Source: an uncultured archaeon | GTDB taxonomy: Archaea > Iainarchaeota > Iainarchaeia > Iainarchaeales > VGJJ01 | Length of the DNA: 64,000 nt | NCBI GenBank assembly: GCA_964363635.1 | Contig: CAYIIU010000001.1 | Coordinates: 5,112-69,111 of the forward strand | Direction: 5' to 3' | In this document: piece by piece, positions 87-47,267 of the stretch | Layout: each line of letters begins with the position of its first letter | Numbering within the stretch: position 1 is the stretch's first letter | Translations under genes and position numbers: made by a program | Notes under the pieces: generated by a model | The model's input: the letters and a program-made list of their open reading frames with translations, nothing else | What the model was told of the DNA's origin: nothing | Database searches by the model: none

Positions 87-1316
87 ATGGCAACCGAAAA
101 ATTATGGGAGAAAGGAATACTCGCAACGGTGGACGCACGTTTAGCGCAAATGGAACGCTTGAAGAAAGAACTCGATGACGTGATGGAAAAACGAATTCAA
201 ACGCATTATGATTCCATGGAAAAAAAATTGGAAGCACTATTTGATGCGCAACGGCAATTATACAAGTTCAAAATGGACGCGGAATTGAATGCCAAAACGA
301 AAGAAGTGGAAGATATTTTCGACCAAAAAATAAATGAAATAAAATCATTGAACTTGAGCACGCAGGAAGACTTGCAGCGAATCAAGGGACAAAAAATGAT
401 TATTGAAGATTTGGCCAAAGACTTGAGCGACAAATCCATTGCCCTTGATGCCACGAAAAAAGCCATCATCGATGACACGGGACAAAAATTAGAGGATTTA
501 CAGGAAAAAGTGGATGACTTGGTGGGAGAAACCGAAACACGCATGAGGGAAGTAGAAAACCGCGCGTCAAAAACACTTGAACTCGAGGAAAAAATAACAT
601 CCAACTTGAGTGCGCAGATGGAAGAGCAGGCCAACAAGATTGTCGAGGCAAAAGTGGAAGATTTACGGATGGAAATCAAAAAAGAAATTATCGAATTGAA
701 AAAATTGGGAGCGGATTTAGCATCGAAGGACATTCAAGGCGTCGTCGAGGAATTCAAAGAGATGAATGAGAAGATGGAGAAGACCAAAAAAGGAATTGAC
801 GAACTTGTTGAGAGTAAAACCCGCGAAGTGGATAAGATGATTGAGACCAAATTAGTGGATGTGGAAAAAATTGTCAACAACAAAATGGAGTCTCTTGTAA
901 AAGAGAAAGAACAATCATTCTCCAAAAAAGTGGACACGCAATCCATGGATGTGAACTCGCTCAAAAAAGAACTGGCCCAAAAACTGCTTGAAACCGAAAC
1001 ACGCATGCAGGGGTTGGACGGATTTCAGAGACAGTTTTTGGAAACACTCAAAAAAAGCAACTTTGAACGGGAAGAATTAATGGGAATTTTGAAAAAGAAA
1101 ATTGAAACATTTGACGTTCGAGCGGATGAAAAAGTGGCCATCATCGACCAACGCTTGAAACAATTGGACGCAGTTGTTGGCGAGCTGGGAACGCTGCTCA
1201 CGCAATGGAAGGGGCAGCAGGCGCAGAATATGGCGAACGCGAACATTGCTGCCAGCCACGCAAACGACGCACCCACTCCCGCGAAAAAGGGCGGATTAAA
1301 CCCATTCAAGAAGTGA
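87..1316 (+). CDS. Hypothetical coiled-coil protein, 409 aa. It is E/K-rich with heptad repeats throughout.
   Basis: The long ORF has periodic charged/hydrophobic repeats such as EKKLEALFDAQRQLYKF and LEEKITSNLSAQMEEQANKIVEAKVEDLRMEIKKE. I recognise no catalytic motif. Confidence 0.5.
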   Translation: MATEKLWEKGILATVDARLAQMERLKKELDDVMEKRIQTHYDSMEKKLEALFDAQRQLYKFKMDAELNAKTKEVEDIFDQKINEIKSLNLSTQEDLQRIKGQKMIIEDLAKDLSDKSIALDATKKAIIDDTGQKLEDLQEKVDDLVGETETRMREVENRASKTLELEEKITSNLSAQMEEQANKIVEAKVEDLRMEIKKEIIELKKLGADLASKDIQGVVEEFKEMNEKMEKTKKGIDELVESKTREVDKMIETKLVDVEKIVNNKMESLVKEKEQSFSKKVDTQSMDVNSLKKELAQKLLETETRMQGLDGFQRQFLETLKKSNFEREELMGILKKKIETFDVRADEKVAIIDQRLKQLDAVVGELGTLLTQWKGQQAQNMANANIAASHANDAPTPAKKGGLNPFKK

Positions 1317-1378
1317 ACCCAAAGGAAAATACGCATGACAAACCAGATGCTTTTTATGCCACAAATCAAAAACAGGGT

Positions 1379-2239
1379 ATGGCATCATCAAAGTTAAGAC
1401 GGAAAGTACGCGGACCATTATTGGTTTGGAGGGCCTTTCAGCTTTTCTCTCAAAAAAAACCTTCACGAGCAGTTTATGAAGAATTAATTAAAGAGCACCC
1501 TGAACTGGGAATTCAGACTCCTGAAAAAATGGAACAATACATGAAAAGGCTCATTGGACTTACATCGGGACAAAAAATAGAACACATTTTTGCAGGAAAA
1601 AATTCAAGAGAAACTTGGGAACAATTCATTGTTTACTTGAATGCGCACAGTCGAAAAAGAGAAAAAATAGTTGCAGCGTTGAAGGGAAGACCGCTCGCGC
1701 GTGATCTGCGGGAAAAAATTGCGGCTGCCAATCGGACACCTGAAAAAAGAGCCATTGTTCGCGCGGCAAACACCGGACGAGAATTAACACCTATGGAAAG
1801 CGCCAACCGCTCGCGCGCACTCAAAAAAAGATGGGAACAAACCATTGCAAAAAACCCAGAGGCGGGAAAAGTGGCTGCTGCACATGCCAACCGAGCCCAA
1901 ATTCTTACCAGACGCCAACGATTGCGCCAAGCTATTAATGAAGGAACAATCCAAGAGGGAGAAACCACTTTTGGGACAAACACAAGAGAAGTGATTGCAG
2001 GAAAGGAGTTTTCTCCCGAAAGAGAAATGTCACGACGGGAAATTAGAAATCTGTTGAATGAAGAGGCAAGGAGATTAAGTGGGATCAAGCGACAAATAAT
2101 CCTAGAACATTTCTTTGAAGAGAAATCCCTTGAAACAATTGCAACCGAGACGGGAATAGGATTGGAACGTATTCAAAAACATTACCGAGAGGCCCTCCAG
2201 ATATTATCCCGGAAATGGAATGTCCGCGCGTTGGTTTGA
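1379..2239 (+). CDS. Basic protein with a C-terminal HTH resembling sigma-70 region 4
   Basis: The C-terminus reads LSGIKRQIILEHFFEEKSLETIATETGIGLERIQKHYREALQILSRK. This matches the region 4 pattern L..RER.VL..RF......TLEEIG..LG...ERVRQI...AL.KL. The N-terminus is K/R-rich. I chose the start at ATG 1379, which is in frame with ORF 1205, to avoid a 112-nt overlap with the upstream gene. Confidence 0.45.
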   Translation: MASSKLRRKVRGPLLVWRAFQLFSQKKPSRAVYEELIKEHPELGIQTPEKMEQYMKRLIGLTSGQKIEHIFAGKNSRETWEQFIVYLNAHSRKREKIVAALKGRPLARDLREKIAAANRTPEKRAIVRAANTGRELTPMESANRSRALKKRWEQTIAKNPEAGKVAAAHANRAQILTRRQRLRQAINEGTIQEGETTFGTNTREVIAGKEFSPEREMSRREIRNLLNEEARRLSGIKRQIILEHFFEEKSLETIATETGIGLERIQKHYREALQILSRKWNVRALV

Positions 2240-3512: not shown

Positions 3513-3749
3513 CTACGGTGAAATCAATAGGATGTTGTCGCCGCGAAGAATAATCTTCCCGTACTTTGTCTTCGGCTGGCCGTTTTCCCAACTCTCGGCG
3601 CTTTCCATGACAATGTTCATGTGCACATCAAATGCTTTCAACACGCCGCGGAAGGACCACCCTCCCTTCAATTCGACAAGGACGTTTTTTCCAATGCTTT
3701 CACTCAACAAATCGAATGGTCGAGAGGCGTTGGGGTTGTTGGTAGTCAT
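3513..3749 (-). CDS. Sm-like archaeal protein (SmAP/LSm)
   Basis: The 78-aa protein contains LKGGWSFRGVLKAFDVHMNIVM, matching the Sm1/Sm2 pattern. Confidence 0.75.
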   Translation of the reverse strand: MTTNNPNASRPFDLLSESIGKNVLVELKGGWSFRGVLKAFDVHMNIVMESAESWENGQPKTKYGKIILRGDNILLISP

Positions 3750-3783: not shown

Positions 3784-6027
3784 TCACACTTTCATCTCTT
3801 CCATTCCTTTTCCGGAAGGAGAACTTTTCTTTCCTCCGCCGAACAAGCGGGCGAAGAAACCGAAAATGGAACCAAAGAAACCTGAATGAGTTTTATTCTC
3901 GTCGAAATTGACAGGAAGACCGGCAAGGCGCGCGGCGAGCTTCTGAATTTCAATGGAAGACTTTGCCTGCGTATTGCGAAGCATTACGGGAACGGCTTTG
4001 TCGCGCTGAAACGAATGACGCATTTCATCATCGTAGGGCACCGTTGCATATACTGGGAGTTCCATCATGCGCGAAACTTCATCCTTGCCAATTTCACCTT
4101 TTTCAAAACGAACCATGTTGAGGACAATTCCCAAGGGTTTGTTTCCCAAACGCTGCGCGACGATTTTTGTTTTCAACACGTCTGCGATGGATGGAGAATC
4201 GGGCGTGGCGATGAGCAAGGATTCTTCCGTGGATGCAATCGTGGCGAGCACGGATTTTTCAATCCCTGCGGGACCGTCCAACAAAACAAAATCGAACTTA
4301 GGTTGAATGGTTTTGATGACCGTTGCCAATCTGTCGGCGTCGACGCGGCGATAATTTTCGAGTGATAATCCGGAAGGAATAAATTTCAGCCCATTGGGGC
4401 CATCGTAAATAGCATCATGGATTCCCGCTTCGCCGAGCAAAACATCGTGTAATGTGATTGGAGAGGATTGCATTCCCAACAAGAGTGAAAGATTCGCCAT
4501 CGCAATGTCCGCATCCACTAAACATACGGACACGCCGCGCTGCGCAAGGGCGATTCCTAAATTAGCACAAATGGATGTGTTGGAGAGAATGATTCCCGAT
4601 GCGTGCGTGAAATGGCCACCGTATTCAGAAACCTGGAAGTCGTAAACATATGGACGATTGTAATCAATTCGTTTCACATCGTCCACGCGTCGAAACTCCA
4701 CATTGTCTTGAAGCATTTGCTCCAACCACGAAATGAGTGGGTGCTGGACATTCATTTCTTTGTAAACATTCAAATAACGCTGCACCGTTTGTTTGGACAG
4801 CGCATAGTATTCCCATTCGTATTCATAGACCATTTGCTTGGTGCATCCCAGCTTCTTTTCAATTTGCAACGCAGTCAAATCGGATTCCTCTCGGATTTGT
4901 TTCAATAATTTTCCAACTGGATACACATCGATATTCGTATTCTCCTCTGCGGGACTCTGCAATTGATCAAATAAGCGGTTGGCCTTTTCCTGATGAGTAA
5001 AACCAATGTAATCGGAATATTTTTGTGCATTTTGTCCGGTAAGATATAAGCGCCAATAGGGCTGCTTCTCTGTCATTTTACCATTTGTTGCCATTTTGTA
5101 CGTTAGGGTTATTTGAGATGAGATGCCAAAACGGTTGCGCAATAATGACGCGACTTGGAACGCAAGCTTCTTTGATTTCGTATCATACTCGATCTCTCGG
5201 CGGTCAATATTCACTGTTCCATCGGTATCAAATAGACCCCGAATGAATGCAGCAATTGACGGATTGCTGGAGTTAAATAATGCAGTCGGAACTTCTTTAT
5301 CGCCGGCCAATGCCATTTTTACGCCGTACTTTTCGAATAGTTTGCGAATGGGCTCTTTTTTGTAAACGCTCATAACAAATGAATTACGATCCTTGTTCTG
5401 GAAAACCTCTCCAAAAACTTTTAAGTACGATTCACGAATGTTTCGAACCATGTCGGGCGGAGTGGCAACCACAGAAATGCCATTCTCTTTCATATTGCCA
5501 TCACCAATCACATATCCTAACCATTGAGCAACATACACAGGAACACTATCTTCGTTTTCGATATCGTGCGTGTTTTTGTACAAAAGCAAATAATCTTTTT
5601 TGGAAACGATTTCGTCCGCGCGAACTTTTTGCAACTTCCCCGAGCGCATGACGACAAATTGATGCTCTGGAGTGACGGAAACATCACCCGCTGCACAACA
5701 GATGGTAAACAATTCCTTAGGAGCGGGCTTGCGCATCAATGCAAAAGGTTTATTTTGAAAGTGGGTCACTTTCTGATTTTCTTCGGAAAACAAAAAAGAA
5801 TTAAGTTGGAATTCAGACGGAGAATCAATCACTTCAAAAAACTCTTCTGAACCGTCCGTCAGTTTGACAGCGACTTTCTTCACGGTTTGCGGACTTTTTT
5901 CGATTAAAGAGTCAATGAATGGACCGATTTGAATAACATCCCCATTTGACAAAGAAATGTATTCATCGTAGGATTGACTTTTCCCTACTCCACCCTTTCC
6001 TGAAACGATTGCTATACTTCGACCCAT
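3784..6027 (-). CDS. MinD/ParA-family ATPase whose deviant Walker A box is interrupted by an intein
   Basis: The N-extein is MGRSIAIVSGKGGVGK. The C-extein begins TSICANLGIALAQRGVSVCLVDADIAMANLSLLLG and continues with LLDGPAGIE, which is MinD-like. A 467-aa insert carrying a LAGLIDADG motif lies between them. Confidence 0.75.
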   Translation of the reverse strand: MGRSIAIVSGKGGVGKSQSYDEYISLSNGDVIQIGPFIDSLIEKSPQTVKKVAVKLTDGSEEFFEVIDSPSEFQLNSFLFSEENQKVTHFQNKPFALMRKPAPKELFTICCAAGDVSVTPEHQFVVMRSGKLQKVRADEIVSKKDYLLLYKNTHDIENEDSVPVYVAQWLGYVIGDGNMKENGISVVATPPDMVRNIRESYLKVFGEVFQNKDRNSFVMSVYKKEPIRKLFEKYGVKMALAGDKEVPTALFNSSNPSIAAFIRGLFDTDGTVNIDRREIEYDTKSKKLAFQVASLLRNRFGISSQITLTYKMATNGKMTEKQPYWRLYLTGQNAQKYSDYIGFTHQEKANRLFDQLQSPAEENTNIDVYPVGKLLKQIREESDLTALQIEKKLGCTKQMVYEYEWEYYALSKQTVQRYLNVYKEMNVQHPLISWLEQMLQDNVEFRRVDDVKRIDYNRPYVYDFQVSEYGGHFTHASGIILSNTSICANLGIALAQRGVSVCLVDADIAMANLSLLLGMQSSPITLHDVLLGEAGIHDAIYDGPNGLKFIPSGLSLENYRRVDADRLATVIKTIQPKFDFVLLDGPAGIEKSVLATIASTEESLLIATPDSPSIADVLKTKIVAQRLGNKPLGIVLNMVRFEKGEIGKDEVSRMMELPVYATVPYDDEMRHSFQRDKAVPVMLRNTQAKSSIEIQKLAARLAGLPVNFDENKTHSGFFGSIFGFFARLFGGGKKSSPSGKGMEEMKV
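4579..5979 (-). mobile_element. Intein with a LAGLIDADG homing-endonuclease domain, inside the MinD-like ATPase
   Basis: The insert begins with Ser straight after GKGGVGK and ends in Asn followed by Thr (ILSN|TS). A block reading FIRGLFDTDGTVN is present. Splicing would restore GKGGVGK-TS-ICANLG. Confidence 0.7.
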
Positions 6028-6118
6028 ATTGATTCACCGAATACTACACGGAATGTACTCTAAACGTGGTTTAGGCATTTAAAGGCACCGATAGGAAGGG
6101 GCTCCATAAACCCGCTTG

Positions 6119-6592
6119 TTAATCCCCGTGGGCTTTGAGGAAGGACTCAATTTCCTTAGCAAGGACTTGCAACTCGACTCGCGTGAGGTCGCTGCCGGCG
6201 CGGATGATGTAGATTTTCCCGTTGTAGGGGAAAATCATGAACCAGTTTTCTTTGTCTTTCACGAGAATCGTTTCACTTTCAGGCAATTCCGTCTTGATGT
6301 AATTGAACATCGCGCTTCCGATGATGGCTTCCGAAAAATCATTCTCATCCGTGGAAATGACAATGCTTCCATTGGGGGAGCAAATGCAAATCGAATCGAC
6401 CAAATGCTTTTTTTTCATGGATTGAACTAATTCCTGGATGGACGTGGTGTTCAATTCAAGTTTGTGGCGCGACAAAAAAGTGTTCAACAATTTCATCTGC
6501 TCCTGCGGCGTGTGATTGTCATCTACATCGAGCACGCGCTTGGTCATACTGCGCACAAATTGTTTTACTCCGCGAATCACCATATTATTCAT
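6119..6592 (-). CDS. Small protein, possibly of roadblock/LC7 type, upstream of the MinD-like ATPase
   Basis: The 157-aa protein has a segment HLVDSICICSPNGSIVISTDENDFSEAIIGSAMFNYI that resembles the roadblock core. The assignment rests on weak pattern similarity only. Confidence 0.3.
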   Translation of the reverse strand: MNNMVIRGVKQFVRSMTKRVLDVDDNHTPQEQMKLLNTFLSRHKLELNTTSIQELVQSMKKKHLVDSICICSPNGSIVISTDENDFSEAIIGSAMFNYIKTELPESETILVKDKENWFMIFPYNGKIYIIRAGSDLTRVELQVLAKEIESFLKAHGD

Positions 6593-6614
6593 TCACCTTC
6601 ATTCCATTGTTAAA

Positions 6615-7121
6615 CTAACGACCTTCAATTCCGGCCAAGCCAAAACGCTTGAACAATGATTCTTTGGACGCGGACTCGACTTCTTTGGCAGGACCAATCT
6701 TTTTGGCCAGTGTTGCATCGAACGAATCTTTTACAAGGGGTTTGAACTGTCCCTTCAAAATGGGTTTAGATAATTTTATTTGGGGATTGAATGCCGTGAC
6801 CAAATCCACTTGCTGTATGGAAAGATCAACCATGTCCAACACCCCAAACTCGGAAAGAAAACCATTCATGACGTGAACAACCGCTTCGTCGCCGTTCAAT
6901 GTTTGCTTGAGACCATAATATTCGTACACGGCACCCATCCCCTGTCCTTGACGGAATAGCACGGCAGACTCTTCCACGCCGCTCTCACCAAACAAGGACT
7001 CGACGACGTATCCGGAGAAATCCGCCGCGGACAAGTCATCCAAATCCTTCTTGGCATCAAACGATTTGACGCTCTTTCCTAGGATTCGCGTTACTCCAGC
7101 AGGTAAATTCATGGTTTTCAA
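6615..7121 (-). CDS. Hypothetical protein, first gene of a putative three-gene operon with the MinD-like ATPase
   Basis: The 168-aa ORF is co-directional with the two downstream genes and separated from them by short gaps. I recognise no motif. Confidence 0.4.
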   Translation of the reverse strand: MKTMNLPAGVTRILGKSVKSFDAKKDLDDLSAADFSGYVVESLFGESGVEESAVLFRQGQGMGAVYEYYGLKQTLNGDEAVVHVMNGFLSEFGVLDMVDLSIQQVDLVTAFNPQIKLSKPILKGQFKPLVKDSFDATLAKKIGPAKEVESASKESLFKRFGLAGIEGR

Positions 7122-7275: not shown

Positions 7276-7680
7276 ATGTCTGAAATCAAATTTACCCACG
7301 TTGGACAACTCCGCGAAGGCGGATATGTGATGATTGACGGCTTCGTCTGCCAAATCAAGACATTTGAAAAATCAAAACCGGGAAAGCACGGTGCCGCTAA
7401 GGCACGCATTACGGCCACGGGATTGTTTGATGGACAAAAACGCAACTTGATGGCCCCCGTCCACGGCGATGCGGAAGTTCCTATTGTAGACCGAGGAAAC
7501 GCTCAAGTAGTTGCCGTCATGGGCGGACAAATCCAGATCATGGACGTAGCCACGTATGAGACGCACAACGTGCCAAAACCGGCTGAATTGAAAGACTTGG
7601 CGAGCGGGGATGAAATAGAATACCTCCGATTCGGAACCAACTTGAAGATTTTGCGCAAACGCACCACGACGACGGCGTAA
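7276..7680 (+). CDS. eif5a: Translation initiation factor 5A (aIF-5A)
   Basis: EKSKPGKHGAAKARI is the hypusine loop, whose consensus is SKTGKHGHAK. Confidence 0.85.
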   Translation: MSEIKFTHVGQLREGGYVMIDGFVCQIKTFEKSKPGKHGAAKARITATGLFDGQKRNLMAPVHGDAEVPIVDRGNAQVVAVMGGQIQIMDVATYETHNVPKPAELKDLASGDEIEYLRFGTNLKILRKRTTTTA

Positions 7681-7761: not shown

Positions 7762-9519
7762 ATGCGACGCACGCCAGTACCTATTTTTGTTTTAGCTGCT
7801 TTTTTGATTATTTTTTCCACTGGAGCGTGGGGATTAGTTTGCGGAGACACGAGTGGAGCGCTTCCTGCAGGAGCGGTTTCACTTTTTAGAATTGATTCGG
7901 TGCACAATGCACATGCGGAAGAAGCAGCAGGCACGACGTACAATAGAGTTGTTTACTGCGCGCCCAGCGTAGGAGAACCTGCACTCGTTGCAAATGCGGC
8001 TGGCGGAACAGAACTGTTACACCTAAATACCCCCACCAGTGCGCATGCCGAATTTCCAACAGGAACAAATTACACTATACCAATTAGATTGGGCACGAAT
8101 AATGGAACACAAGTACTGGTGCTAATGGTAGATGCTGCATCAGACACCTGCACAACACACAATGCCTCGGGCATCACCTACCAAGAAGTAGTTCGACTCG
8201 CACGCCCCACCAATTCTCATTTGCAAAGCAACAGCTACAATGGCCCTAGTTCGCTTTACCCGCGCCGCGTGTGCGTGTCAGTAAATATGAGCGGGGGAAG
8301 CGTGCCGGATAATGATATTGTTCAAACAACCGTAAGTGGAACGCCTGCAACGGTTGCAATGAACGGCGCAATAAGCTCCAATATTTTAACACGAAATTTA
8401 GTAGCGGGCGATACAGACTATACTGATATTTCTACTATAACAGTTACAACAATGTGTCGAATTGGAACAGGAAATTGTGATGCTATTTCAAGTTCGCCAT
8501 CAAAATACGACGCATATTTGAATGAACTAACATTGATGAGCGCAAATGGTTATTCTGGAGCACTCATCCCGGCATCCCTCGACATTGTACAATATGGGTC
8601 GAACTCGCAGAGCGGATTTGTGGGCGCCATGAGTGCACTTTACGGTGCAAACAAAATAACATCTACAGGGCAATTAGATACAATAACAAATGCATCTAAC
8701 GACACGCACACGAAAGTGTATAACATCAATCCAGCAGCACAATTACTCACGCCCGGGCAATATCGAATATTTTCGCTCACTTGGAGAGCAGATTTTGATT
8801 ATCAGACTAACCCAAAAGTTGAAGTGGATTATCAAACATCAAACTTTAGCGAAACAACTTTTTCAGTAACTGGATTTTGTGGGGATGGATACATTGACCC
8901 GACAAGCACACCTATTGAAGTATGTGAACCGCCAGGATTTCCAGGAGGGTGCCCAGCAACCTCAACATGCAACAGTACATGCGATGCATGCTTATCAAGC
9001 GGGCCTGGGACTTCAGGAACGGCCGGAGACGTGTACGTGCTGAAGAATATTGTCTTCCCGAACGTGTACAACGGAAGCGATATTGTCGCGAACATCACCA
9101 TCGAAAACAAAAACATGACGGCGGCATCCGACCCCATCCAAGAAAAGCTCCTCATCACAATTCGCGACTCACAGGGGGTTTTAGATCCGATTTGGAATCA
9201 ATATCCTATTGACATCCTTAGCTTTGGAGGCGTGTCCAAAAAGACGATTCAAGTCACCATCCAAACAGGTGGAGTGGCACCATTTTTGACACCGGGAAAA
9301 ACATACACGCTCTACGCGACGGTGCAGAAATTTATAGACACCATTCCACCCATCGACGCTACTGAAACAATCACCGCCAACAACAGCGCGTACAAAACAT
9401 TTACCACACTCAATGCGCCCCAAACGTTTGCCATCCCCGATTCGCCTTGGTGGATGAGTATACTTGTGTTCGGAATGATTGCGGGATGGTTATTCGTCTC
9501 CGCTCGCAAGAAAAATTAA
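7762..9519 (+). CDS. Secreted Ser/Thr/Asn-rich cell-surface protein with a C-terminal membrane anchor
   Basis: The N-terminus carries a signal peptide, MRRTPVPIFVLAAFLIIFSTGAWG. The C-terminus has the TM helix WWMSILVFGMIAGWLFV followed by RKKN. The composition is low-complexity and rich in T/S/N. Confidence 0.55.
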   Translation: MRRTPVPIFVLAAFLIIFSTGAWGLVCGDTSGALPAGAVSLFRIDSVHNAHAEEAAGTTYNRVVYCAPSVGEPALVANAAGGTELLHLNTPTSAHAEFPTGTNYTIPIRLGTNNGTQVLVLMVDAASDTCTTHNASGITYQEVVRLARPTNSHLQSNSYNGPSSLYPRRVCVSVNMSGGSVPDNDIVQTTVSGTPATVAMNGAISSNILTRNLVAGDTDYTDISTITVTTMCRIGTGNCDAISSSPSKYDAYLNELTLMSANGYSGALIPASLDIVQYGSNSQSGFVGAMSALYGANKITSTGQLDTITNASNDTHTKVYNINPAAQLLTPGQYRIFSLTWRADFDYQTNPKVEVDYQTSNFSETTFSVTGFCGDGYIDPTSTPIEVCEPPGFPGGCPATSTCNSTCDACLSSGPGTSGTAGDVYVLKNIVFPNVYNGSDIVANITIENKNMTAASDPIQEKLLITIRDSQGVLDPIWNQYPIDILSFGGVSKKTIQVTIQTGGVAPFLTPGKTYTLYATVQKFIDTIPPIDATETITANNSAYKTFTTLNAPQTFAIPDSPWWMSILVFGMIAGWLFVSARKKN

Positions 9520-9550
9520 CTTTTGGGAAAAAAAATATTGAGAACCCTCA

Positions 9551-11077
9551 TTACTTTTTTTCTATTTCAAACTTAGGGAACAAAACAGGCCCTTTGACGA
9601 TTTTCTTTCCGCTCAACGAAGGGGTTTTGTTCAGCGCCGTGAACGAGGGCTTTTCGAAACCAATTTGTGAAATTATTTTCTCGCACGTTTGGGGAAGGAC
9701 GGGTGCGAGAAGGATGCTCAGCACGCGGATGATTTCAATCTCCGTAGCAAGCAGCGACTCTACTTCCGCACGCTTGCCCTCTTTCATTAATTTCCACGGC
9801 TCGGTATCGGCGATGAATTTGTTTCCCACCGCGGAAACCTTCATCACTTGAACAAGGGCATTCTGAATGTCATGCTCCAAATAGAAACGATACGCTTCCT
9901 GCGCGTGAACGCGGGCTTGTTGAAGAACCGCCTCATTCAATGCCGCGTCGGGAATGACTCCATTCGTGTATTTTTCCATCATGGATAACACACGAAAAAC
10001 CAAATTGCCGAGACTGTTTCCTAATTCAGAGTTGGCACGCTCGACGAGGTTCTTTTCCGAAAAAGCAATGTCATTTCCCAATGGGACTTCGCGTAAGAGG
10101 TAATAGCGCAGGGCTTCCATGCCATATTTTGGAATAATTTGCAATGGGTCAACGCCATTTCCCAAACTTTTGGAAAATTTTATTCCATTTTCATCATTAA
10201 CGAAGCCATGAACGATAACTTGCTTGGGCAAAGCAATATTCGCGCTCATGAGCATGGCAGGCCAGAGCAATGAATGAAAGCGGTTGATGTCCATCCCGAT
10301 AACATGTACATCTGCCGGCCAAAAGTCCGTGTATTTCTTTTCGGGAAAACCGCACACCGTAAGATAGTTCACGAGGGCATCAGACCACACGTACATCGTG
10401 TGCTCCGGATTCACGGGCGTGGGAATTCCCCACTTGATGGATTTGCGAGAGAACGAAACGTCGTGCAATCCTTGCTTGAGAAAATTTTCCATCTCTTTCT
10501 TTCGAAACTCCGGAAAAACATTTCCAGGGGTTTGCGCGTACCACTCTTCGAGCTTTTTTTGAAACGCACTCCATTTGAAAAAATAACTTTCCTCTTTGAC
10601 CTTTTTCAATTCCTTTCCGCAATGCGTATTCGGGCAGAAGCGCTTGCCGAGCTTTTCAACGGTGTCCTTCTCTGTCCAGAACGTTTCGTCCGAAACACAA
10701 TACCATCCTTCGTACATGTCGGGGTAAATGTCATCGTTGTCCCACATTAATTGAAAAAAATGCTGCGCGGCTTTCACGTGATCCGCGTCAGTGGTGCGGA
10801 CGAAGCGGTCGTAGGAGATGAGAGCCATGTCCATGAGCTTCTGGAATTCAGCCGACATCTCATCCACAAATTGTTTGGGAGGAAGATTGGCGTGCTTCGC
10901 GGACTCGGCGATCTTTTCGCCGTGCTCGTCCGTGCCAACCGTGAACAAGACTTTTTCACCATTCAGACGGTGAACGCGGGCAATGACATCCGCTACCGTC
11001 TTCTCGTAGACATGACCCATGTGCAATTTTGCATTAGGGTAGTCAATCGCGCACGAGATGAAGAAACCCTTGGACAT
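9551..11077 (-). CDS. metG: Methionyl-tRNA synthetase
   Basis: HMGH is the class I HIGH motif and KFSKS is the KMSKS motif. A Zn knuckle CPNTHCGKE is present. Confidence 0.9.
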   Translation of the reverse strand: MSKGFFISCAIDYPNAKLHMGHVYEKTVADVIARVHRLNGEKVLFTVGTDEHGEKIAESAKHANLPPKQFVDEMSAEFQKLMDMALISYDRFVRTTDADHVKAAQHFFQLMWDNDDIYPDMYEGWYCVSDETFWTEKDTVEKLGKRFCPNTHCGKELKKVKEESYFFKWSAFQKKLEEWYAQTPGNVFPEFRKKEMENFLKQGLHDVSFSRKSIKWGIPTPVNPEHTMYVWSDALVNYLTVCGFPEKKYTDFWPADVHVIGMDINRFHSLLWPAMLMSANIALPKQVIVHGFVNDENGIKFSKSLGNGVDPLQIIPKYGMEALRYYLLREVPLGNDIAFSEKNLVERANSELGNSLGNLVFRVLSMMEKYTNGVIPDAALNEAVLQQARVHAQEAYRFYLEHDIQNALVQVMKVSAVGNKFIADTEPWKLMKEGKRAEVESLLATEIEIIRVLSILLAPVLPQTCEKIISQIGFEKPSFTALNKTPSLSGKKIVKGPVLFPKFEIEKK

Positions 11078-12164: not shown

Positions 12165-15100
12165 ATGGGTATGGAAAGAGAAAGTTTTGGATTCGAGGAA
12201 GCGAAAGGCTTCCACAAGCCGGAAGAGACGGAGATAGCGCAGACGCCCCTCAAGGGAGCCGCAAACCCCTTCATCCCCAAATTCGAAGAATTCTTTTCCA
12301 CTCAAGAGTATAAGAAAAAGATCGAGAAGCTCGCCCACGAATACCCGCAAAACAAATCGCTGATTGTGGACTACAACGATGTGGATTCGTTTGATTATCA
12401 ACTCGCCGAAGAATTGCTCGCCCATCCTGATTTGTTGATTGAAGCCGCGGAACTGGCCGTGCAAAAAATTGAAGTGCCAGTGCTGCAAATGGATAAATTT
12501 TCTCCCAATGTACGTTTTCGGGGATTGCCCAAAGACAAGTCCCCCCTCGTGCGGGACATTTCCGCGCAGCAATTGGGAAAACTATTCGCCGTGGAGGGAG
12601 TTATTAGACAAGTCACCGAAGTCATGCCTAAATTGAAAAGCGCCACATGGAGATGCAAGCGCTGCGGAAACCAATACATCTTGGAGCAGGACGGGCACCA
12701 ACAGCGCAAGCCCGCATTCTGCAATTGCAAACACCGCGACTTTGAATTGGTTCCCGAAGAAAGCACGTTCGTGGACTATCAAAAAATTCAGATTCAAGAA
12801 CCCTTAGAAATGCTCAAAGGAAGCGAGCAAGCCGTGAATTTGGATGTGTACATTGAAGACGACTTCGTGAATCGCGTGTATCCGGGAAACCGCACGCAGA
12901 TTACGGGGATTTTGAGACTGTATCCGCCCAACAAGGACAAAAAGAATGTCTATGGAAGATACTTGGAAGCCATTCATCTGGAAGAAACGGAAAAAGAATT
13001 CGAAGACGTTACCATCAACGAAGAGGATGAAGTGAAAATCAAAGAAATCGCCAAGAATCCTAAGATTTATGAGATACTCGTACAATCGATCGCCCCCACG
13101 ATTCATGGACACGAAATCGTGAAAGAATCCATTTCGCTTCAGCTTTTTGGAGGAGTAAAGAAGACACTCCCCGGGGATATGAAAATCCGCGGAAATATTC
13201 ACGTTTTGCTTGTGGGCGATCCTGGCACTGGTAAAAGTATCCTCCTGCAAGCGACGGACAAGATTGCGCCGAAGAGCGTGTATGTGAGTGGTAAAGGAAG
13301 CACGAGTGCAGGATTATGCGTTGCACCTGACTCACTTATTTTGAATGATAATGGTTTCAAATCGATTGAAGAGTTTGTTGAAACAAAATTCGACAATCAA
13401 TTGCAGCGGGAAGAATTGCCCGGAGCATTTAGCAATGAATTCATGGGACAGACGCACAGCCTCACTCCACAATTGGATTTCTCAGTTCAACCTGTTGAGA
13501 AAATCTGGAGAATTAAAGCTCCGCCAAAGATGATTCAATTCACTACTAAAACAGGAAGAGAATTGAGCCTTACACCCGCAACCTCGCTGATCCGACTCAA
13601 AAGTAGTAAAGCGGAATGGATTGAAGCAAATGAATTACAAGCAGGAGACTATGTGGCAGTACCTCGCTTTTTGCCTGAAGGACAACGAAAAAATATTCCA
13701 ACCTTCACCGTATTGCTGGATGACCCGTACATCAAAATTGGAAATCCATTAGCGGAATGGATGAAAGAAATAATCGCGAAGCTCGTTCCGAAATACGGAA
13801 GCAAACAGGCCATCGCCAAAAAAGTGGGAAAAAGCAGGGACACTATCTATGCGATCCAAAACCCTAAATTCCACCACGGATGGGAACTGCAGAAAGTAGT
13901 TGGATTAGCACGCGAAGCAGGATATTCCGATAATCAAATCGCCCAAAAGATAACAACCCTATTCATTCGACATGGCTTTACAAATCAAATCCCCACCTAC
14001 CTAGATGACCCTGATGTCACCTACCTCGTTGGAGCCATTATCGGGGATGGAAGCATGGAAGATGCAGAAGATTGCACGACCATTCGTCTCTGCGGGAACG
14101 ATCCGCAGATACTTGATCGATGCACCAAAATATTGCATGATAAATTTGGAATCATTCCTGAAAAGGAGAAGAATGCGGATAGGGAGAGAGTCCCCTCCTT
14201 ACGAATGAGTTCCCGTGTTTTAGGAAAAATTCTTCGCGCGTATGGAATGCGACATGAGAAAAAAGAAAACGCACTGTCTCACATGGCAACAGAGATGCCT
14301 AACCATATTCTTCGAAATTTACTCCAAGGATTATTTGATACAGACGGATACGCAGATGATTCTAAAACAGGTGGAAAAAATGTTGGAATAAGTTCTGTCA
14401 GTCCTGAACTAATTAAAACAATTCACCTCTCGCTACTCAAATTTGGGATTATTTCCAAAAAGAGATTCCGTAAGAGAGCAGGAAATGTCGCAATCGGAAA
14501 AAAAATCACGGTAATAAGCCGAAACGATCAATACTCCATCGAAATTTATGGGAAAAAGAATATGGAGCTTTTCAGAGAAAAAATAGGGTTTGGTCTCGCC
14601 CGAAAACAAGAGACTCTGGATAAAATAATCAACAGCATACATGAAGAAAGGACAAATATTGATTTTATTCCGGAGATTCAAGAGGCACTTCAAACAACAA
14701 ATGCCAAAAGCCAATACAAAAAAGGAAAAGTTCGGATTTCCCGAACAAAATTGAAGGAATTAATGAAGGATCTGGAAGATTGTTTCTTGCAAAAATTGGG
14801 AAACGCCAATGTCCTTTGGGACCAAATCAAAGTGAAGAAAGAGTTTTCGCCCGATTATGAATACGTCTATGATATGACCGTTAGCGGCAGCCATAACTTC
14901 ATTGCGAATGGGTTTTACGTCCATAACACGGCTTCCGCCGTGAAAGATGATTTTGGTGAAGGCGGATGGACGCTCAAAGCCGGTGCGCTCGTGCTTGCGT
15001 CCGGCGGAATGGTTATGGTAGATGAATTTGATAAGATGGAATGCTTGATGGGAGACACGCTCGTCTGCTCCGAAAACGGAGAACTGAAACCCATTCAAAC

Positions 15101-17699
15101 CATTTTTGAAGAAGTCAAAAAAGAAGGAAGAATCGAAAAGACAAAAAAAGGAACAAGTGTGCGCGGCATCCAAAATAGATTCGTTCTTTCAATGGACAAA
15201 AACTTGAAAATGGTCAAACGAAAAGTGTTGGCCGCACATGAGTATTCCCATGATGGAAGAATTTTGGAAATCCGACTTCAGAGCGGAGAAAAAATAAAAG
15301 CCACTCCTAATCACCCTTTTTTTACTTCTACCGAAAAAGAAGTCAAGACTATTAAAGCAGGATTCTTGAAAAAAGGAGACTTTGTGCTAGTCCCTGCGCG
15401 CGTCCCTAATGAGGATGGGGGGAAATCAAATGAGAAACTTTCCCGCATGTATGGATATTTAGCGGGGGACGGAAACGTTACTTACAACCCGCCTGAAAAC
15501 TACTTGGTCCGATTTACGAATAAGGATGCAGACCTCTTGGATGATTTCAGCATATGCTGCGAAAACACGTTTGGTAAACCCACCATTTACCCGAGCGAGA
15601 TAAGGGCGGGAGGATTAATGTGTACGCGCATCAATGGACAAGCGCACATTGACTTCATTGCTGAACACGCTCCCGGACTCATGGAGAAATTTGAGCGCAA
15701 ATACACTCCGACAAGCATCTTTCATTCCTCTCGAAACACGTCCAATTACCTGCGAGGACTCTTTGACTCGGAGGGAAGCGTGGACATGAGACACCAGCAG
15801 ATCAGCTTTGCGTCAACGAGTGAAAGATTGACCTTGGAAGTTAAAGCACTACTATTGAAATACGGCATTCTCTCCCAAATACAGCACAAGAAACCAAAGG
15901 GGAATAAAATGACGGCATACGTGCTTCGAATCACCGACGCCGATTCGCTCCATTCATTTTTAAAAAAAATTGGATTCACCAGCCGACGAAAATACAAAAA
16001 ACTCGAAACATTCATTCAACCTACTAAAGAAAGGAGCGTCATCAATGTAATCCCAAATATTGGGGGGCTTCTCAAAGAAATTCGCATACCATTGGGTTTG
16101 CATCAAAAGCAATGCGGGATAAATAAAACGACCTACAACAATTTTGAAAAGGGGGCCGCCAACATAAGCATAAAAAATGCCCAGAAAGTATTGACGGCAT
16201 TCAAAAAAACAGCGGCGCAAAAGAACGTTTCAGATGAAACAAAAGAGAGAATGAAGTATTTCGAAGCCCTCGCTATGGGAGACGTCCGCTGGAGAAAAGT
16301 CGATGAAATAAAAGAAGCCAGCATTTCTTTGGATACTCACCTAAGCTATCAGCGTACCCACCAGATAAATCAAATTTTAAAAAAAACTGGAATGAAAAAA
16401 GTCTCCCATCAAAAAATGATAGAGAGAATTCCAATACTTATTCAAGAAATAGAAAAGGCCAACGAAACTATTCAAGAATATGTTGACAAAGAAAAGCATT
16501 CGTGGAGTGAAATAAAGGAAGTCATCAGAAAAAACACAATTAGCCACTCTGAAATAGCCAAAGAAGTGGGAGTGAACCAAGCCACTTTTACTAGGTGGGC
16601 GAATCAAAATACAAAACCGCCGCTGAATGCATTGCAGCAGACGGCCCAAGCGGTAAAAAAAAGATTAATTAGAAGAAAACAAACAACTGAAAGTCTGGTA
16701 CAGCTATTAAGTGAGACAATCGCTAAACCAACCGCCAAAATATATGATTTGACTATCGAAGGAAGCCACAATTTCATCGCCAACAATATTATCGTACACA
16801 ACTCCGAAGACCGGTCAGCGATGCATGAGGCGATGGAACAAGGACAAGTGAGTGTAGCGAAAGCCGGAATGGTCACGCGATTCAAAACGGACACTTCAGT
16901 ATTAGCCGCGGCCAATCCAAAACTTTCGCGCTTTGACACGTTCAAACCATTTTTCGAACAAATTGACTTGCCCCCCTCTCTCATTTCGCGATTTGATTTA
17001 TTTTTCATGATTCGCGACACGCTCAACAAGGAACGAGATGAAATGATTGCCGCGCACATCTTGTCCTCGCATAAAGTGGGGGAGCAGATGCTGCAGATGC
17101 AGCGCGCGGGAAAGAAGGGGTACACGGATGAAATGCTGAAAATGGAAGAGAAAGTCACGCCCATTATTGACATCGAATTGTTGCGAAAATACATATCCTA
17201 CTCGCGACAGCGCGTGTTTCCCATTTTGAGTTTAGAGGCCACCCAACTGATTCAAGACTTTTACGTTGGTTTACGTGATCAGGGAAGACAGCAGGGGAGC
17301 TATGCAGCAACGGCGAGACAATTGGAAGGACTCGTACGATTGGCGGAAGCCTCTGCACGCGTACGTTTGAGTGACGAAGTGACGCAAGAAGATGCGGAAC
17401 GTGCCATGCGACTCGTGCGCGCTTCGTTAGAGGATGTGGTGAAAGACCCCGAGACGGGAAGAATTGACATCGATATTGTTACCAGCGGACAAACACAAAG
17501 TTCGCGCGACCATATGCGCACCATCACGGACATCATCAAGGCGAAAAGCAAGGAAATGGACAAAGTCCCCATTCAAGATGTCGTTGCGGAAGCGTTGTCG
17601 AGAGGAATCGAAGAAGAGAAAGTGCGCGATTTGATTACCAAACTCAAGAAAGCGGGAGATATTTACGAACCCTCGCACGGTTTCCTCAAATCGGCGTGA
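12165..17699 (+). CDS. mcm: MCM replicative helicase interrupted by two inteins
   Basis: Extein motifs include a Zn finger CKRCG...CNCKH, the Walker A box GDPGTGKSILLQ and the Walker B box MVMVDEFDKM. They also include the sensor SEDRSAMHEAMEQGQVSVAKAG and the arginine finger VLAAANP. The extein totals about 720 aa. Confidence 0.9.
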   Translation: MGMERESFGFEEAKGFHKPEETEIAQTPLKGAANPFIPKFEEFFSTQEYKKKIEKLAHEYPQNKSLIVDYNDVDSFDYQLAEELLAHPDLLIEAAELAVQKIEVPVLQMDKFSPNVRFRGLPKDKSPLVRDISAQQLGKLFAVEGVIRQVTEVMPKLKSATWRCKRCGNQYILEQDGHQQRKPAFCNCKHRDFELVPEESTFVDYQKIQIQEPLEMLKGSEQAVNLDVYIEDDFVNRVYPGNRTQITGILRLYPPNKDKKNVYGRYLEAIHLEETEKEFEDVTINEEDEVKIKEIAKNPKIYEILVQSIAPTIHGHEIVKESISLQLFGGVKKTLPGDMKIRGNIHVLLVGDPGTGKSILLQATDKIAPKSVYVSGKGSTSAGLCVAPDSLILNDNGFKSIEEFVETKFDNQLQREELPGAFSNEFMGQTHSLTPQLDFSVQPVEKIWRIKAPPKMIQFTTKTGRELSLTPATSLIRLKSSKAEWIEANELQAGDYVAVPRFLPEGQRKNIPTFTVLLDDPYIKIGNPLAEWMKEIIAKLVPKYGSKQAIAKKVGKSRDTIYAIQNPKFHHGWELQKVVGLAREAGYSDNQIAQKITTLFIRHGFTNQIPTYLDDPDVTYLVGAIIGDGSMEDAEDCTTIRLCGNDPQILDRCTKILHDKFGIIPEKEKNADRERVPSLRMSSRVLGKILRAYGMRHEKKENALSHMATEMPNHILRNLLQGLFDTDGYADDSKTGGKNVGISSVSPELIKTIHLSLLKFGIISKKRFRKRAGNVAIGKKITVISRNDQYSIEIYGKKNMELFREKIGFGLARKQETLDKIINSIHEERTNIDFIPEIQEALQTTNAKSQYKKGKVRISRTKLKELMKDLEDCFLQKLGNANVLWDQIKVKKEFSPDYEYVYDMTVSGSHNFIANGFYVHNTASAVKDDFGEGGWTLKAGALVLASGGMVMVDEFDKMECLMGDTLVCSENGELKPIQTIFEEVKKEGRIEKTKKGTSVRGIQNRFVLSMDKNLKMVKRKVLAAHEYSHDGRILEIRLQSGEKIKATPNHPFFTSTEKEVKTIKAGFLKKGDFVLVPARVPNEDGGKSNEKLSRMYGYLAGDGNVTYNPPENYLVRFTNKDADLLDDFSICCENTFGKPTIYPSEIRAGGLMCTRINGQAHIDFIAEHAPGLMEKFERKYTPTSIFHSSRNTSNYLRGLFDSEGSVDMRHQQISFASTSERLTLEVKALLLKYGILSQIQHKKPKGNKMTAYVLRITDADSLHSFLKKIGFTSRRKYKKLETFIQPTKERSVINVIPNIGGLLKEIRIPLGLHQKQCGINKTTYNNFEKGAANISIKNAQKVLTAFKKTAAQKNVSDETKERMKYFEALAMGDVRWRKVDEIKEASISLDTHLSYQRTHQINQILKKTGMKKVSHQKMIERIPILIQEIEKANETIQEYVDKEKHSWSEIKEVIRKNTISHSEIAKEVGVNQATFTRWANQNTKPPLNALQQTAQAVKKRLIRRKQTTESLVQLLSETIAKPTAKIYDLTIEGSHNFIANNIIVHNSEDRSAMHEAMEQGQVSVAKAGMVTRFKTDTSVLAAANPKLSRFDTFKPFFEQIDLPPSLISRFDLFFMIRDTLNKERDEMIAAHILSSHKVGEQMLQMQRAGKKGYTDEMLKMEEKVTPIIDIELLRKYISYSRQRVFPILSLEATQLIQDFYVGLRDQGRQQGSYAATARQLEGLVRLAEASARVRLSDEVTQEDAERAMRLVRASLEDVVKDPETGRIDIDIVTSGQTQSSRDHMRTITDIIKAKSKEMDKVPIQDVVAEALSRGIEEEKVRDLITKLKKAGDIYEPSHGFLKSA
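13317..14927 (+). mobile_element. MCM intein 1, 537 aa, with a LAGLIDADG endonuclease
   Basis: The insert starts at Cys after GKGSTSAGL and ends YVHN before TASAVKDD. It contains LVGAIIGDGSMED and LQGLFDTDGYADD. Confidence 0.85.
15042..16802 (+). mobile_element. MCM intein 2, 587 aa, with a LAGLIDADG endonuclease
   Basis: The insert starts CLMGDTLV after DEFDKME and ends IIVHN before SEDRSAMHEAMEQ. It contains YLAGDGNV and LRGLFDSEGSVD. Confidence 0.85.
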
Positions 17700-47200: not shown

Positions 47201-47267
47201 TTGCGGCACCTAACAAGGCTCCACCAGCTACAATAGCTGCGAGTTTGCGTACTTTCAAAACATTCAT
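44214..47267 (-). CDS. Large S-layer-like cell-surface glycoprotein
   Basis: A signal peptide MNVLKVRKLAAIVAGGALLGAAMAPMVSA is present. Its size is 1017 aa. It is T/S/G/N/V-rich and has many N-x-T/S sequons. Confidence 0.6.
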   Translation of the reverse strand: MNVLKVRKLAAIVAGGALLGAAMAPMVSAITSAEAKSVTYNAEMSPNVNIVVGSSAAVSDGVWAGNIARKVVEKAVMEKVYTGGTGTGTAVVTDIAAVLALGGTVTTSGGKTFDNTPLNSTGATAEYSSDIGKDPLSFLTDKSLSYKYNGSSTSIDVKETVGVKLNPKFDTATQVKDLVTRLDSGDINYVVSLGAGIPTSAAANSTTDFTDTSDDNIRIPFFGKTFLVQKVDIDDSNNVVELRLVEDKAKQTFVAGESFTAQGVGAYSGQTLTVTVVSVVATGPAAATYQAKFNLTDEAGNVVDTQTVSAGNFVEFEDSAGDDVISGDVYLDSASVNTGTNEGAVEVLVGTSSVRLLDGQNYPYNEQVDAENINGPYQVTLTETASSNRLTKIVIKNTTKSTTTATTTAANLVKGWPISVFDSDHPFYSTDDSLTAAGTAGTHEVSFLDGTGALGEDAFKITFNGFKEDQAMVYVQIGNNELEFKDAQDTTHRVPMWVRLPEAGDSGSSTLSAGTFASNSNGIQFNFDNGNKTLYYDVNQATQDFNVADGDILNGVAIDINPVTLEMTTDLGSIDINGTGPVNVVLSGVSYLTVAPTTNYTQVRLQADGWARFAKAQINSSTASSDFLDGAAGASNPRVNGAGMTTAAMAHVFFYDDANVTAAGNLGGIGAGPRLNLSGDNYAVAYGFFVNESGTSINSRGSSEGVYLSLQGNIFNAVSSGTGQAIPVSGGLQKSKNLAFFGSDLGEDGTPDINFYVPQIDNYGKDPSAETVITAFFGVDENNGTAFGYNSRAHIDTRNDRIPLLGGASNKISTPTVDVNYGRTAQALNGVTLSLSNDSTSSSSLASAYTDWGTKMSIADGQTAEWWIPDARPNISFLVSGESTTSTVTGGEEITVKEGETGTFTTGTTVTVKDVTYTATVTDGSTVVTNGTGFTYMTPAPLNGKAQVYTDAQSVPGPKIVVGGPAVNALATEVADLLNASGDKVAGVYGSNIIVAGYTAADTGTAAQELISALDAA

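Follow-up and report, generated by a model that had tools for sequence, protein, structure and literature searches.

The stretch of DNA analysed here (the window) comprises 64,000 nucleotides (nt) of contig CAYIIU010000001.1 from an uncultured archaeon of the Iainarchaeota lineage. A gene on its reverse strand, at positions 3784–6027, encodes a precursor of 747 amino acids (aa) of the ATPase MinD, the Walker A loop (P-loop) of which is split by a 467-aa insert. Judged by its motifs, the insert is a class-1 intein with a nested homing endonuclease of the two-motif LAGLIDADG type. Two small genes precede the MinD gene, one for a probable, divergent member of the DUF2226 family and one for a protein with a predicted roadblock/LC7 fold. 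The explanation which accounts best for the whole of the data, and which we hold with considerable confidence, is that of a MinD with a selfish intein in its P-loop and a conserved gene array with DUF2226 and roadblock-type candidate partners. The main features of the MinD gene are as follows.

3784–6027, reverse strand: MinD precursor gene, open reading frame of 747 aa (N-extein, intein and C-extein)
5980–6027, reverse strand: N-extein, aa 1–16 (MGRSIAIVSGKGGVGK), ending at the Walker A lysine and including the signature lysine (SGK) of the deviant Walker A motif
4579–5979, reverse strand: predicted class-1 intein, 467 aa (precursor aa 17–483), with nested LAGLIDADG homing endonuclease and a helix-turn-helix (HTH)-like DNA-binding region
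5941–5979, reverse strand: intein block A (SQSYDEYISLSNG), beginning with Ser17, i.e., Ser1 of the intein, the N-terminal nucleophile
5656–5682, reverse strand: intein block B, VSVTPEHQF, aa 116–124, with TxxH motif
5491–5523, reverse strand: LAGLIDADG motif 1, WLGYVIGDGNM, aa 169–179, intact
5212–5244, reverse strand: LAGLIDADG motif 2, IRGLFDTDGTV, aa 262–272, intact
4816–4878, reverse strand: HTH-like region of the intein (HTH_3)
4579–4650, reverse strand: intein blocks F and G, YVYDFQV..GGHF..GIILSN, with the block F Asp and the terminal Asn
3784–4578, reverse strand: C-extein, aa 484–747 and stop codon, beginning with Thr+1 (TSICANLG)
4489–4518, reverse strand: switch I, VDADIAMANL, in the C-extein
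4258–4290, reverse strand: Walker B/switch II, FVLLDGPAGIE, in the C-extein
3826–3885, reverse strand: predicted C-terminal amphipathic membrane-targeting helix, SGFFGSIFGFFARLFGGGKK, in the C-extein

The host protein and its intein

Removal of the insert in silico yields a protein of 280 aa, in which the loop reads SGKGGVGKTS, a deviant Walker A motif (xKGGxGK[ST]) with its signature lysine. This sequence scored 274.7 bits with the archaeal MinD model TIGR01969 (minD_arch, NCBIfam; curated cut-off 201.75 bits) over model positions 1–242 of 251, and the unspliced precursor, with the intein in place, still reached 250.8 bits; the bacterial MinD equivalog model was not reached by the spliced extein (133.6 bits, cut-off 212.9). 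The flanks of the insert match the Pfam families ParA, CbiA and AAA_31, and alignments with the solved archaeal MinDs 1hyq (MinD-1 of A. fulgidus, E value 3.6e-61), 1g3q and 1ion run ungapped through the P-loop. An uninterrupted MinD is present in the closest species-representative genome (L010; L numbers designate the loci compared), which is colinear over GKGGVGK/TSICANLG, gapless, and identical to the spliced product in 272 of 280 residues (97%). The DNA identity of the two amounts to only 84%, and the ratio of nonsynonymous to synonymous substitution rates (dN/dS) of the whole extein is 0.043, which indicates strong purifying selection on a host gene that stays functional. The original prediction, made from the sequence of the window, that splicing would restore a MinD P-loop was thus borne out.

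The predicted spliced product of 3784–6027 is accordingly an archaeal MinD of the membrane-binding type, the membrane helix being a prediction; a hydrophobic moment of 0.55 was computed for the segment FFGSIFGFFARLF. With its deviant Walker A motif and signature lysine, its switch regions and its amphipathic helix, the protein should dimerise on ATP and bind to the membrane like other MinDs. Homologues are labelled Diapherotrites/Iainarchaeum and Micrarchaeota, which places the source organism among the DPANN archaea, and an identical 747-aa protein is encoded on two contigs of Hainich groundwater metagenomes (0.1-µm filter fraction). Within the 64-kb window, no second copy of MinD, of the roadblock-like gene or of the DUF2226 gene was found.

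The insert follows directly after GKGGVGK, as had been proposed, so that lysine K16 of the Walker A motif stands on one side of it and the Mg-binding threonine (T484, which is Thr+1) on the other. The junctions read GKGGVGK/SQSYDEY... and ...GIILSN/TSICANLG; the proposed boundaries (Ser1, Asn/Thr+1) therefore hold, and the N-terminal nucleophile is Ser17 and not the Gln which had been considered a possibility. In DNA of the empty site, as found in L010, the insertion point is ...GGTGGCGTTGGAAAG/ACGTCTATTTGCGCC..., marked by the slash. Blocks A, B, F and G were all found, with 38.0 bits for Pfam PF14890 (Intein_splicing; cut-off 35.8 bits). The endonuclease was recognised by PF14528 (LAGLIDADG_3) with an E value of 1.1e-17 and 64.5 bits (cut-off 22.5 bits), and HTH_3 scored 22.7 bits, just below its cut-off of 23 bits. 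The segment GLFDTDGTV, noticed initially as a LAGLIDADG block, proved to be the second motif of the domain; a first motif, WLGYVIGDGNM, is also present.

Eighteen homologous MinD inteins occupy one and the same site, with the junctions GKGGVGK/S and SN/T(T/S) in every case. Little or no variation was seen among them in Ser1, in block B (VT-x-EH-x-F, its T and H being invariant), in block F (VYDFQ, GGHF) or in the terminal SN. Against an active intein speaks the penultimate residue, which is Ser in place of the usual His, and the terminus ILSN had been pointed out as a possible sign of a defect. We read the terminus otherwise, since all 18 full related inteins have Ser as first residue and Ser-Asn as last, so that the penultimate Ser would be a conserved family trait and not a lesion. 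Natural inteins without a penultimate His are known, and efficient ones ending in Ser-Asn exist, e.g., the DnaE split inteins. In two of the inteins (P0019 and P0021), the first LAGLIDADG motif is gone and all splicing blocks are kept, a stage of decay which would be expected, because splicing must be preserved in a homing element. The dN/dS value of the window intein against that of L020 was 0.059, with dS saturated.

The gene array

The following features lie around the MinD gene.

6119–6592, reverse strand: predicted roadblock/LC7-fold protein; favoured start ATG at 6583, 154 aa; roadblock-like domain at approximately 6122–6442, N-terminal helical extension
6615–7121, reverse strand: probable divergent DUF2226 protein; favoured start ATG at 7112, 165 aa; globular alpha/beta domain, disordered linker, C-terminal peptide
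6627–6668, reverse strand: conserved C-terminal peptide SKESLFKRFGLAGI of the DUF2226 protein, following a low-confidence linker
3513–3749, reverse strand: LSm protein gene (Pfam LSM, E value 2e-21), directly downstream of MinD
7276–7680, forward strand: aIF5A gene (Pfam IF5A-like_N), divergent neighbour at the upstream edge of the array

Two tightly linked, codirectional genes of 168 and 157 codons had been predicted upstream of MinD; they are present, although alignments of homologues favour the ATG codons at 7112 and 6583 as starts and thus lengths of 165 and 154 aa. The intergenic gaps are short, with 22–31 nt between the DUF2226 and the roadblock-like gene, 91 nt from there to MinD and 34 nt from MinD to LSm. 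Conservation of the array was examined by a genome scan with the closer DUF2226-like alignment (A2), which reached Iainarchaeota-type genomes only. The roadblock-like gene directly followed DUF2226 in all 14 species-representative loci, and MinD came next in each of the 11 loci where the contig continues. The full order of aIF5A (divergent), NYN, DUF2226, roadblock-like gene, MinD and LSm was seen in L003, L007, L008, L009, L024, L025 and L027; the NYN gene, which stands between aIF5A and DUF2226 in these relatives, is missing in the window. Genomes labelled Micrarchaeota are among the array-bearing loci. The conserved linkage of the three genes in other archaeal genomes, on which the notion of an operon had been made to depend, was therefore found, and the succession of DUF2226, roadblock-like gene, MinD and LSm is shared by Iainarchaeota/Diapherotrites and Micrarchaeota, whether or not MinD contains the intein. 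Both small genes gave dN/dS values of approximately 0.04 against L010; together with the value for MinD, this indicates strong purifying selection on all three genes of the array.

The 154-aa protein had been credited with a roadblock-like segment. In the fold this was upheld: an AlphaFold2 model, calculated with 22 homologues, shows the topology alpha-beta-beta-alpha-beta-beta-beta-alpha after a helical N-terminal extension of about 45 aa and thereby includes the alpha-beta-beta-alpha-beta-beta-beta order of the roadblock/LC7 fold. A profile of the 51-member family aligned with dynein light chain roadblock chains of the PDB over the whole domain and in register, with E values of 0.14–0.4, which are below threshold; one of the 51 members matched Pfam Robl_LC7 (PF03259; E value 0.004). 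Comparison by hhalign with human DYNLRB1 (the query sequence used scores 91.5 bits with Robl_LC7) gave an E value of 0.019 and a probability of 2.5%, with matching secondary-structure elements and likewise below threshold. Several points weigh against the assignment. The confidence of the model is low (mean predicted local distance difference test score 58, approximately 70 in the C-terminal domain), neither Pfam nor other family libraries gave a match for the window protein, and no sequence-based method places it significantly in Robl_LC7. Thus, the model suggests a roadblock-fold protein which is not a member of Robl_LC7 at the level of sequence. The family is small, with 77 cluster representatives among 1.84 billion in an exhaustive profile search, and its named members belong to Diapherotrites and Micrarchaeota only.

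More than one roadblock-like partner had been envisaged; the other small protein is most probably a divergent DUF2226 protein. In the window, it scored 17.7 bits with Pfam DUF2226 (PF09987; cut-off 22 bits), and its positional orthologues in L007, L009, L024 and L025 reached 32–39 bits. A hidden Markov model (HMM) built from its close relatives found the orthologues of L007 (E value 5e-24) and L009 (E value 8e-17), and one relative is named DUF2226 protein by NCBI. A solved structural relative of the 165-aa protein was not found. Its C-terminal peptide has the form SKESLFK(K/R)FGLAGI in relatives and is still recognisable as h-h-KK-h-G-L in orthologues of 25% identity; by analogy with the terminal peptides of MinE and ParB, one might speculate that it contacts MinD or the membrane.

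Gene order is the basis for considering the two small proteins as cognate partners of MinD, with a role like that of MinE/MinC or ParB for the bacterial relatives, an assignment which we put forward as possible but tentative. The array might instead be kept by descent only, the DUF2226 and roadblock-fold proteins being unrelated to MinD and perhaps acting with the RNA-related NYN nuclease, LSm and aIF5A, or having separate roles. Several observations weigh for such an explanation and against a partnership. The genes for MetRS, aIF5A, NYN, LSm and L15e are also syntenic in L003, L007, L024, L025 and L027, and with synteny so widely kept in small genomes, neighbouring positions could in part be a matter of common ancestry, which makes linkage a weaker argument; in L008, L017, L018, L020 and L024, one or more unrelated genes separate MinD from the roadblock-like gene; MinDs of the Pacearchaeota type occur without both partner genes; MinD might be transcribed separately from a TATA-like box, recognised by eye within the 91 nt which precede it; and known roadblock-fold regulators pair with Ras-like GTPases of the TRAFAC class and not with ATPases of the SIMIBI class. 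On the other hand, the array is also kept where the two small proteins have diverged to about 20–28% identity with those of the window, 4-nt overlaps between neighbouring genes (L009, L024) suggest coupled translation, and the roadblock-like family is limited to these lineages and was in the array at every locus examined. Moreover, roadblock-fold proteins reportedly regulate P-loop NTPases in general, a view said to go back to Koonin and Aravind in 2000. Descent as the sole cause therefore appears rather doubtful to us, although it is by no means far-fetched.

The junction between the roadblock-like gene and MinD is a hotspot of insertions. The extra gene of L008 (5498–6457) encodes 319 aa with a faint HEAT_2 match, and L017, L018 and L020 have an extra gene or a spacer of 0.6–0.9 kb. 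In L024, the roadblock-like gene and MinD, which has no intein there, are separated by a free-standing homing endonuclease gene of the LAGLIDADG_2 type (5567–6334, 255 aa); the stop codon of this gene directly abuts the MinD start, and it represents a second kind of homing element at the MinD locus. Upstream of intein-bearing MinDs of the Pacearchaeota type, another conserved small helical protein of about 140 aa is encoded (L026, 3515–3934; L006, 5527–5952), with the motif ADHL-x-x-V-(T/S)-LKYT(R/K)T-x-DVI and a gene position downstream of Sec61-beta and NAC. HMM scores of about zero excluded that these proteins are diverged DUF2226 or roadblock-like proteins.

Distribution and mobility of the intein

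The original prediction knew of no intein in a MinD-class ATPase. A paper on one was indeed not found, but a database search revealed about 20 further MinD clusters of DPANN archaea (596–767 aa) with an insert at the identical position; these sequences are already public, and NCBI names several of them simply "cell division ATPase MinD". Among 11 related GTDB species-representative loci with a readable MinD, the intein is present in two (L017 and L020) and absent from the other nine. Intein-free MinDs colinear at the N-extein were aligned from L010 and eight further loci (L007, L011, L012, L015, L016, L018, L022, L023). L007 and L027 share the array and have near-identical exteins, the intein being absent from one and present in the other. 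Conversely, it occurs in MinDs of the Pacearchaeota type which have neither a DUF2226 nor a roadblock-like gene, and the intein is thus not tied to the operon.

The content of guanine plus cytosine (G+C) is 41.7% in the intein and 48.2% in the exteins. Between the window MinD and those of the Pacearchaeota type, the inteins are 40–47% identical, the exteins only 29–35%. This reverses the usual order of rates, and lateral transfer into the conserved P-loop site is the simplest explanation. Nor does intein similarity follow that of the exteins among close relatives, since the exteins of L017 and L020 are both 86% identical to the window copy and the inteins 62.5% and 77.5%, respectively. Distant MinDs thus appear to have acquired the intein by lateral transfer. 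Its sporadic presence, its low G+C content, the contrast between L007 and L027 and the reversed identities mark it, on this comparative evidence, as a mobile, selfish and optional element which is no part of the function of the operon.

A different role would be that of a conditional post-translational switch, with splicing responding to an environmental or redox cue and gating the formation of active MinD. Conditional splicing is documented for the inteins of the ATPases RadA (PMC4513877) and DnaB (PMC6195587). The insertion within the catalytic P-loop, by which the precursor must be inactive, would suit a switch, as would the strong conservation of the splicing blocks, which extends to those of the 18 homologues with a decayed endonuclease. 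Such conservation is, however, expected of any intein in an important gene, and Ser1 and Thr+1 supply no thiol for redox control. An element which is lacking in nine of 11 close species with the operon, and in L010 with its 97% identical MinD, and which bears the marks of a mobile parasite in G+C content and in inteins more alike than exteins across clades, is very unlikely to be a switch. Hardly credible is a dead intein with MinD as a pseudogene-like, non-functional precursor: it could invoke the missing penultimate His and the fact that splicing is here a prediction from the sequence, against which stand a reading frame intact over 747 codons, the presence of Ser1, TxEH, the block F Asp, the terminal Asn and Thr+1, the invariant SN, the low dN/dS values of extein and intein given above and the existence of efficient Ser-Asn inteins.

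A further gene of the window contains inteins.

12165–17699, forward strand: MCM helicase gene, 1844 aa, with two LAGLIDADG inteins

The first of these extends over approximately aa 385–921 (...STSAGL/CVAP...VHN/TASA) and the second over approximately aa 959–1546 (...DKME/CLMG...VHN/SEDR); the latter has an HTH_3 region like that of the MinD intein. With 41.1% and 41.4% G+C, compared with 48.5% in the MCM exteins, they show an offset like that of the MinD intein. Both are outside the Walker A motif, and GDPGTGKS of MCM is intact. The idea that the MinD intein stems from one in the P-loop of the nearby MCM was therefore rejected, the more so as the better match is only 25% identical.

Other neighbouring genes

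In L003, the array is followed, after about 700 bp, by an FtsZ gene (8877–9941; Tubulin and FtsZ_C domains). The window and the other loci showed no FtsZ at the corresponding position; the proximity in L003, as a single case, hints at a division-related role of the array. Further open reading frames of the window are listed below.

87–1316, forward strand: coiled-coil protein of 409 aa, no Pfam family, N-terminal motif LWEKGIL-x-TV
1205–2239, forward strand: open reading frame of up to 344 aa with a C-terminal HTH of the Sigma70_r4 type (25.4 bits, cut-off 24.1)
7762–9519, forward strand: large open reading frame of 585 aa, no Pfam match
44214–47267, reverse strand: large open reading frame of 1017 aa, no Pfam match

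The motif LWEKGIL-x-TV is also found in a 369-aa coiled-coil protein of L003 (10313–11422), which adjoins FtsZ and the MinD array, and the 409-aa gene may be another conserved cell-organisation gene of this neighbourhood. The Sigma70_r4-type domain is unusual for an archaeon; the 5' part of its reading frame overlaps the coiled-coil gene, so that translation probably begins at a later codon. Hydrophobic segments are found at either end of the 585-aa protein, and L008 contains a 557-aa gene without family at the matching place beside aIF5A; genes of this type may encode a lineage-specific surface protein.

Comparison with known systems

According to Novikova et al. (2016, PMC4760082), inteins are found preferentially in ATPase P-loops, and the insertion site in MinD is typical in this respect. 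The main text of that article has no entry for MinD among the intein hosts, and our literature searches yielded nothing on inteins in MinD or on DUF2226/PF09987 and nothing relevant on inteins in DPANN. With the P-loop inteins MCM-a, DnaB-b and RFC-S (PMC4760082) and with LAGLIDADG inteins of the PI-SceI type, the MinD intein has in common the class-1 Hint domain and the nested two-motif LAGLIDADG endonuclease; it also resembles those of P-loops in its insertion into the Walker A motif of a P-loop NTPase, its sporadic occurrence, its low G+C content and the decay of the endonuclease in some copies. It differs in its host, a positioning ATPase of the MinD/ParA class (SIMIBI) and not an NTPase of replication, repair or translation, and in the use of Ser1/Thr+1 and Ser-Asn, where those inteins have Cys1 and His-Asn. 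The element is thus a new allele of a well-known kind.

The spliced protein shares the deviant Walker A motif, the switches and the C-terminal amphipathic helix with other archaeal MinDs (TIGR01969; 1hyq, 1g3q, 1ion; MinD2 and MinD4 of Haloferax volcanii), from which it is set apart by the intein and by its place beside DUF2226 and roadblock-fold genes in an array specific to DPANN. A membrane-targeting helix is present in bacterial MinD as well. To our knowledge, archaea are without MinC and MinE, and a partner has not been established for any archaeal MinD. The downstream neighbour of H. volcanii MinD2, HVO_0596, is described as a gene of unknown function, the deletion of which had no phenotype (PMC11588486). 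As in bacterial MinCDE and ParA/ParB, a MinD/ParA ATPase is encoded here together with small proteins, which are candidate partners, and the short, conserved basic/hydrophobic terminal peptide of MinE and ParB resembles that of one of them. Neither small protein, however, shows similarity in sequence or fold to MinC, MinE or ParB.

In MglA/MglB and Rag/Ragulator, the NTPase is a Ras-like GTPase of the TRAFAC class, whereas that of the window is a SIMIBI-class ATPase; we know of no pairing of a roadblock-fold protein with an ATPase of the MinD type. Compared with proteins of the MglB type, the roadblock-like protein possesses the additional N-terminal helical extension of about 45 aa, and it stays below the Pfam thresholds of Robl_LC7.

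The Dip system positions the divisome in Haloferax and consists of the GTPase DipA, DipB (DUF2073) and the Zn-ribbon protein DipC (He et al. 2026 preprint, PMC13228585). Both Dip and the window array are archaeal three-gene sets of a membrane-binding NTPase and two small proteins, Dip being tied to FtsZ-based division. The protein families differ, and an identity of the two systems was therefore ruled out. Among DPANN, the preprint reports Dip only from Nanohalarchaeota (PMC13228585); Iainarchaeota and Micrarchaeota may thus use something else.

Proposed mechanism

MinD would be made as the 747-aa precursor, which should be unable to bind ATP, since its P-loop is split between lysine and threonine; active MinD would arise only via protein splicing. 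According to established intein chemistry, an N-O acyl shift at Ser1 would be followed by transesterification onto Thr+1, and cyclisation of the terminal Asn and an O-N shift would then produce the 280-aa MinD with GKGGVGKTS. The LAGLIDADG endonuclease, both motifs of which are intact, would let the element invade MinD alleles with an empty site, the target being the conserved codons of the P-loop. The C-terminal amphipathic helix would attach MinD dimers with bound ATP to the membrane. Probably a dimer itself, the roadblock-fold protein could regulate the ATPase cycle of MinD or serve as an adaptor, and the DUF2226 protein could bind to MinD or the membrane by its K/F-rich C-terminal peptide and provide a link to a cargo, perhaps the FtsZ divisome.

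Taken to its full extent, this would mean that DUF2226, the roadblock-fold protein and MinD are an unrecognised Min-like spatial system of Iainarchaeota and Micrarchaeota, in which a roadblock-fold protein regulates a SIMIBI-class MinD and DUF2226 links MinD to the membrane or the FtsZ divisome. We consider this extended proposal as rather unlikely in its entirety; if true, it would be, as far as we know, the first pairing of a roadblock-fold regulator with a SIMIBI-class MinD. Conservation and fold prediction make it plausible that the array is a new variant of the MinD/ParA positioning modules.

Significance

The MinD intein adds a class of host, an ATPase of cell organisation, and a defined site to the catalogue of inteins, in agreement with their preference for P-loops. 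Natural occupied and empty MinD alleles, 97% identical, are suited to studies of homing and splicing, and the chemistry with Ser1/Thr+1 and Ser-Asn could interest protein engineers. Database entries for "MinD" with at least 700 aa which are of the intein type should be read as precursors and not as unusually large MinDs. The three-gene array offers two concrete candidate partners for an archaeal MinD. The MinD paralogues of Haloferax do not position FtsZ, a task which the preprint gives to Dip (PMC13228585). If the Min-like system proposed above were real, it would fill the role which MinE/MinC have in bacteria and Dip has in Haloferax, and if the link between the roadblock-fold protein and MinD holds, the NTPases under the control of roadblock-fold regulators would include a MinD/ParA ATPase in addition to Ras-like GTPases.

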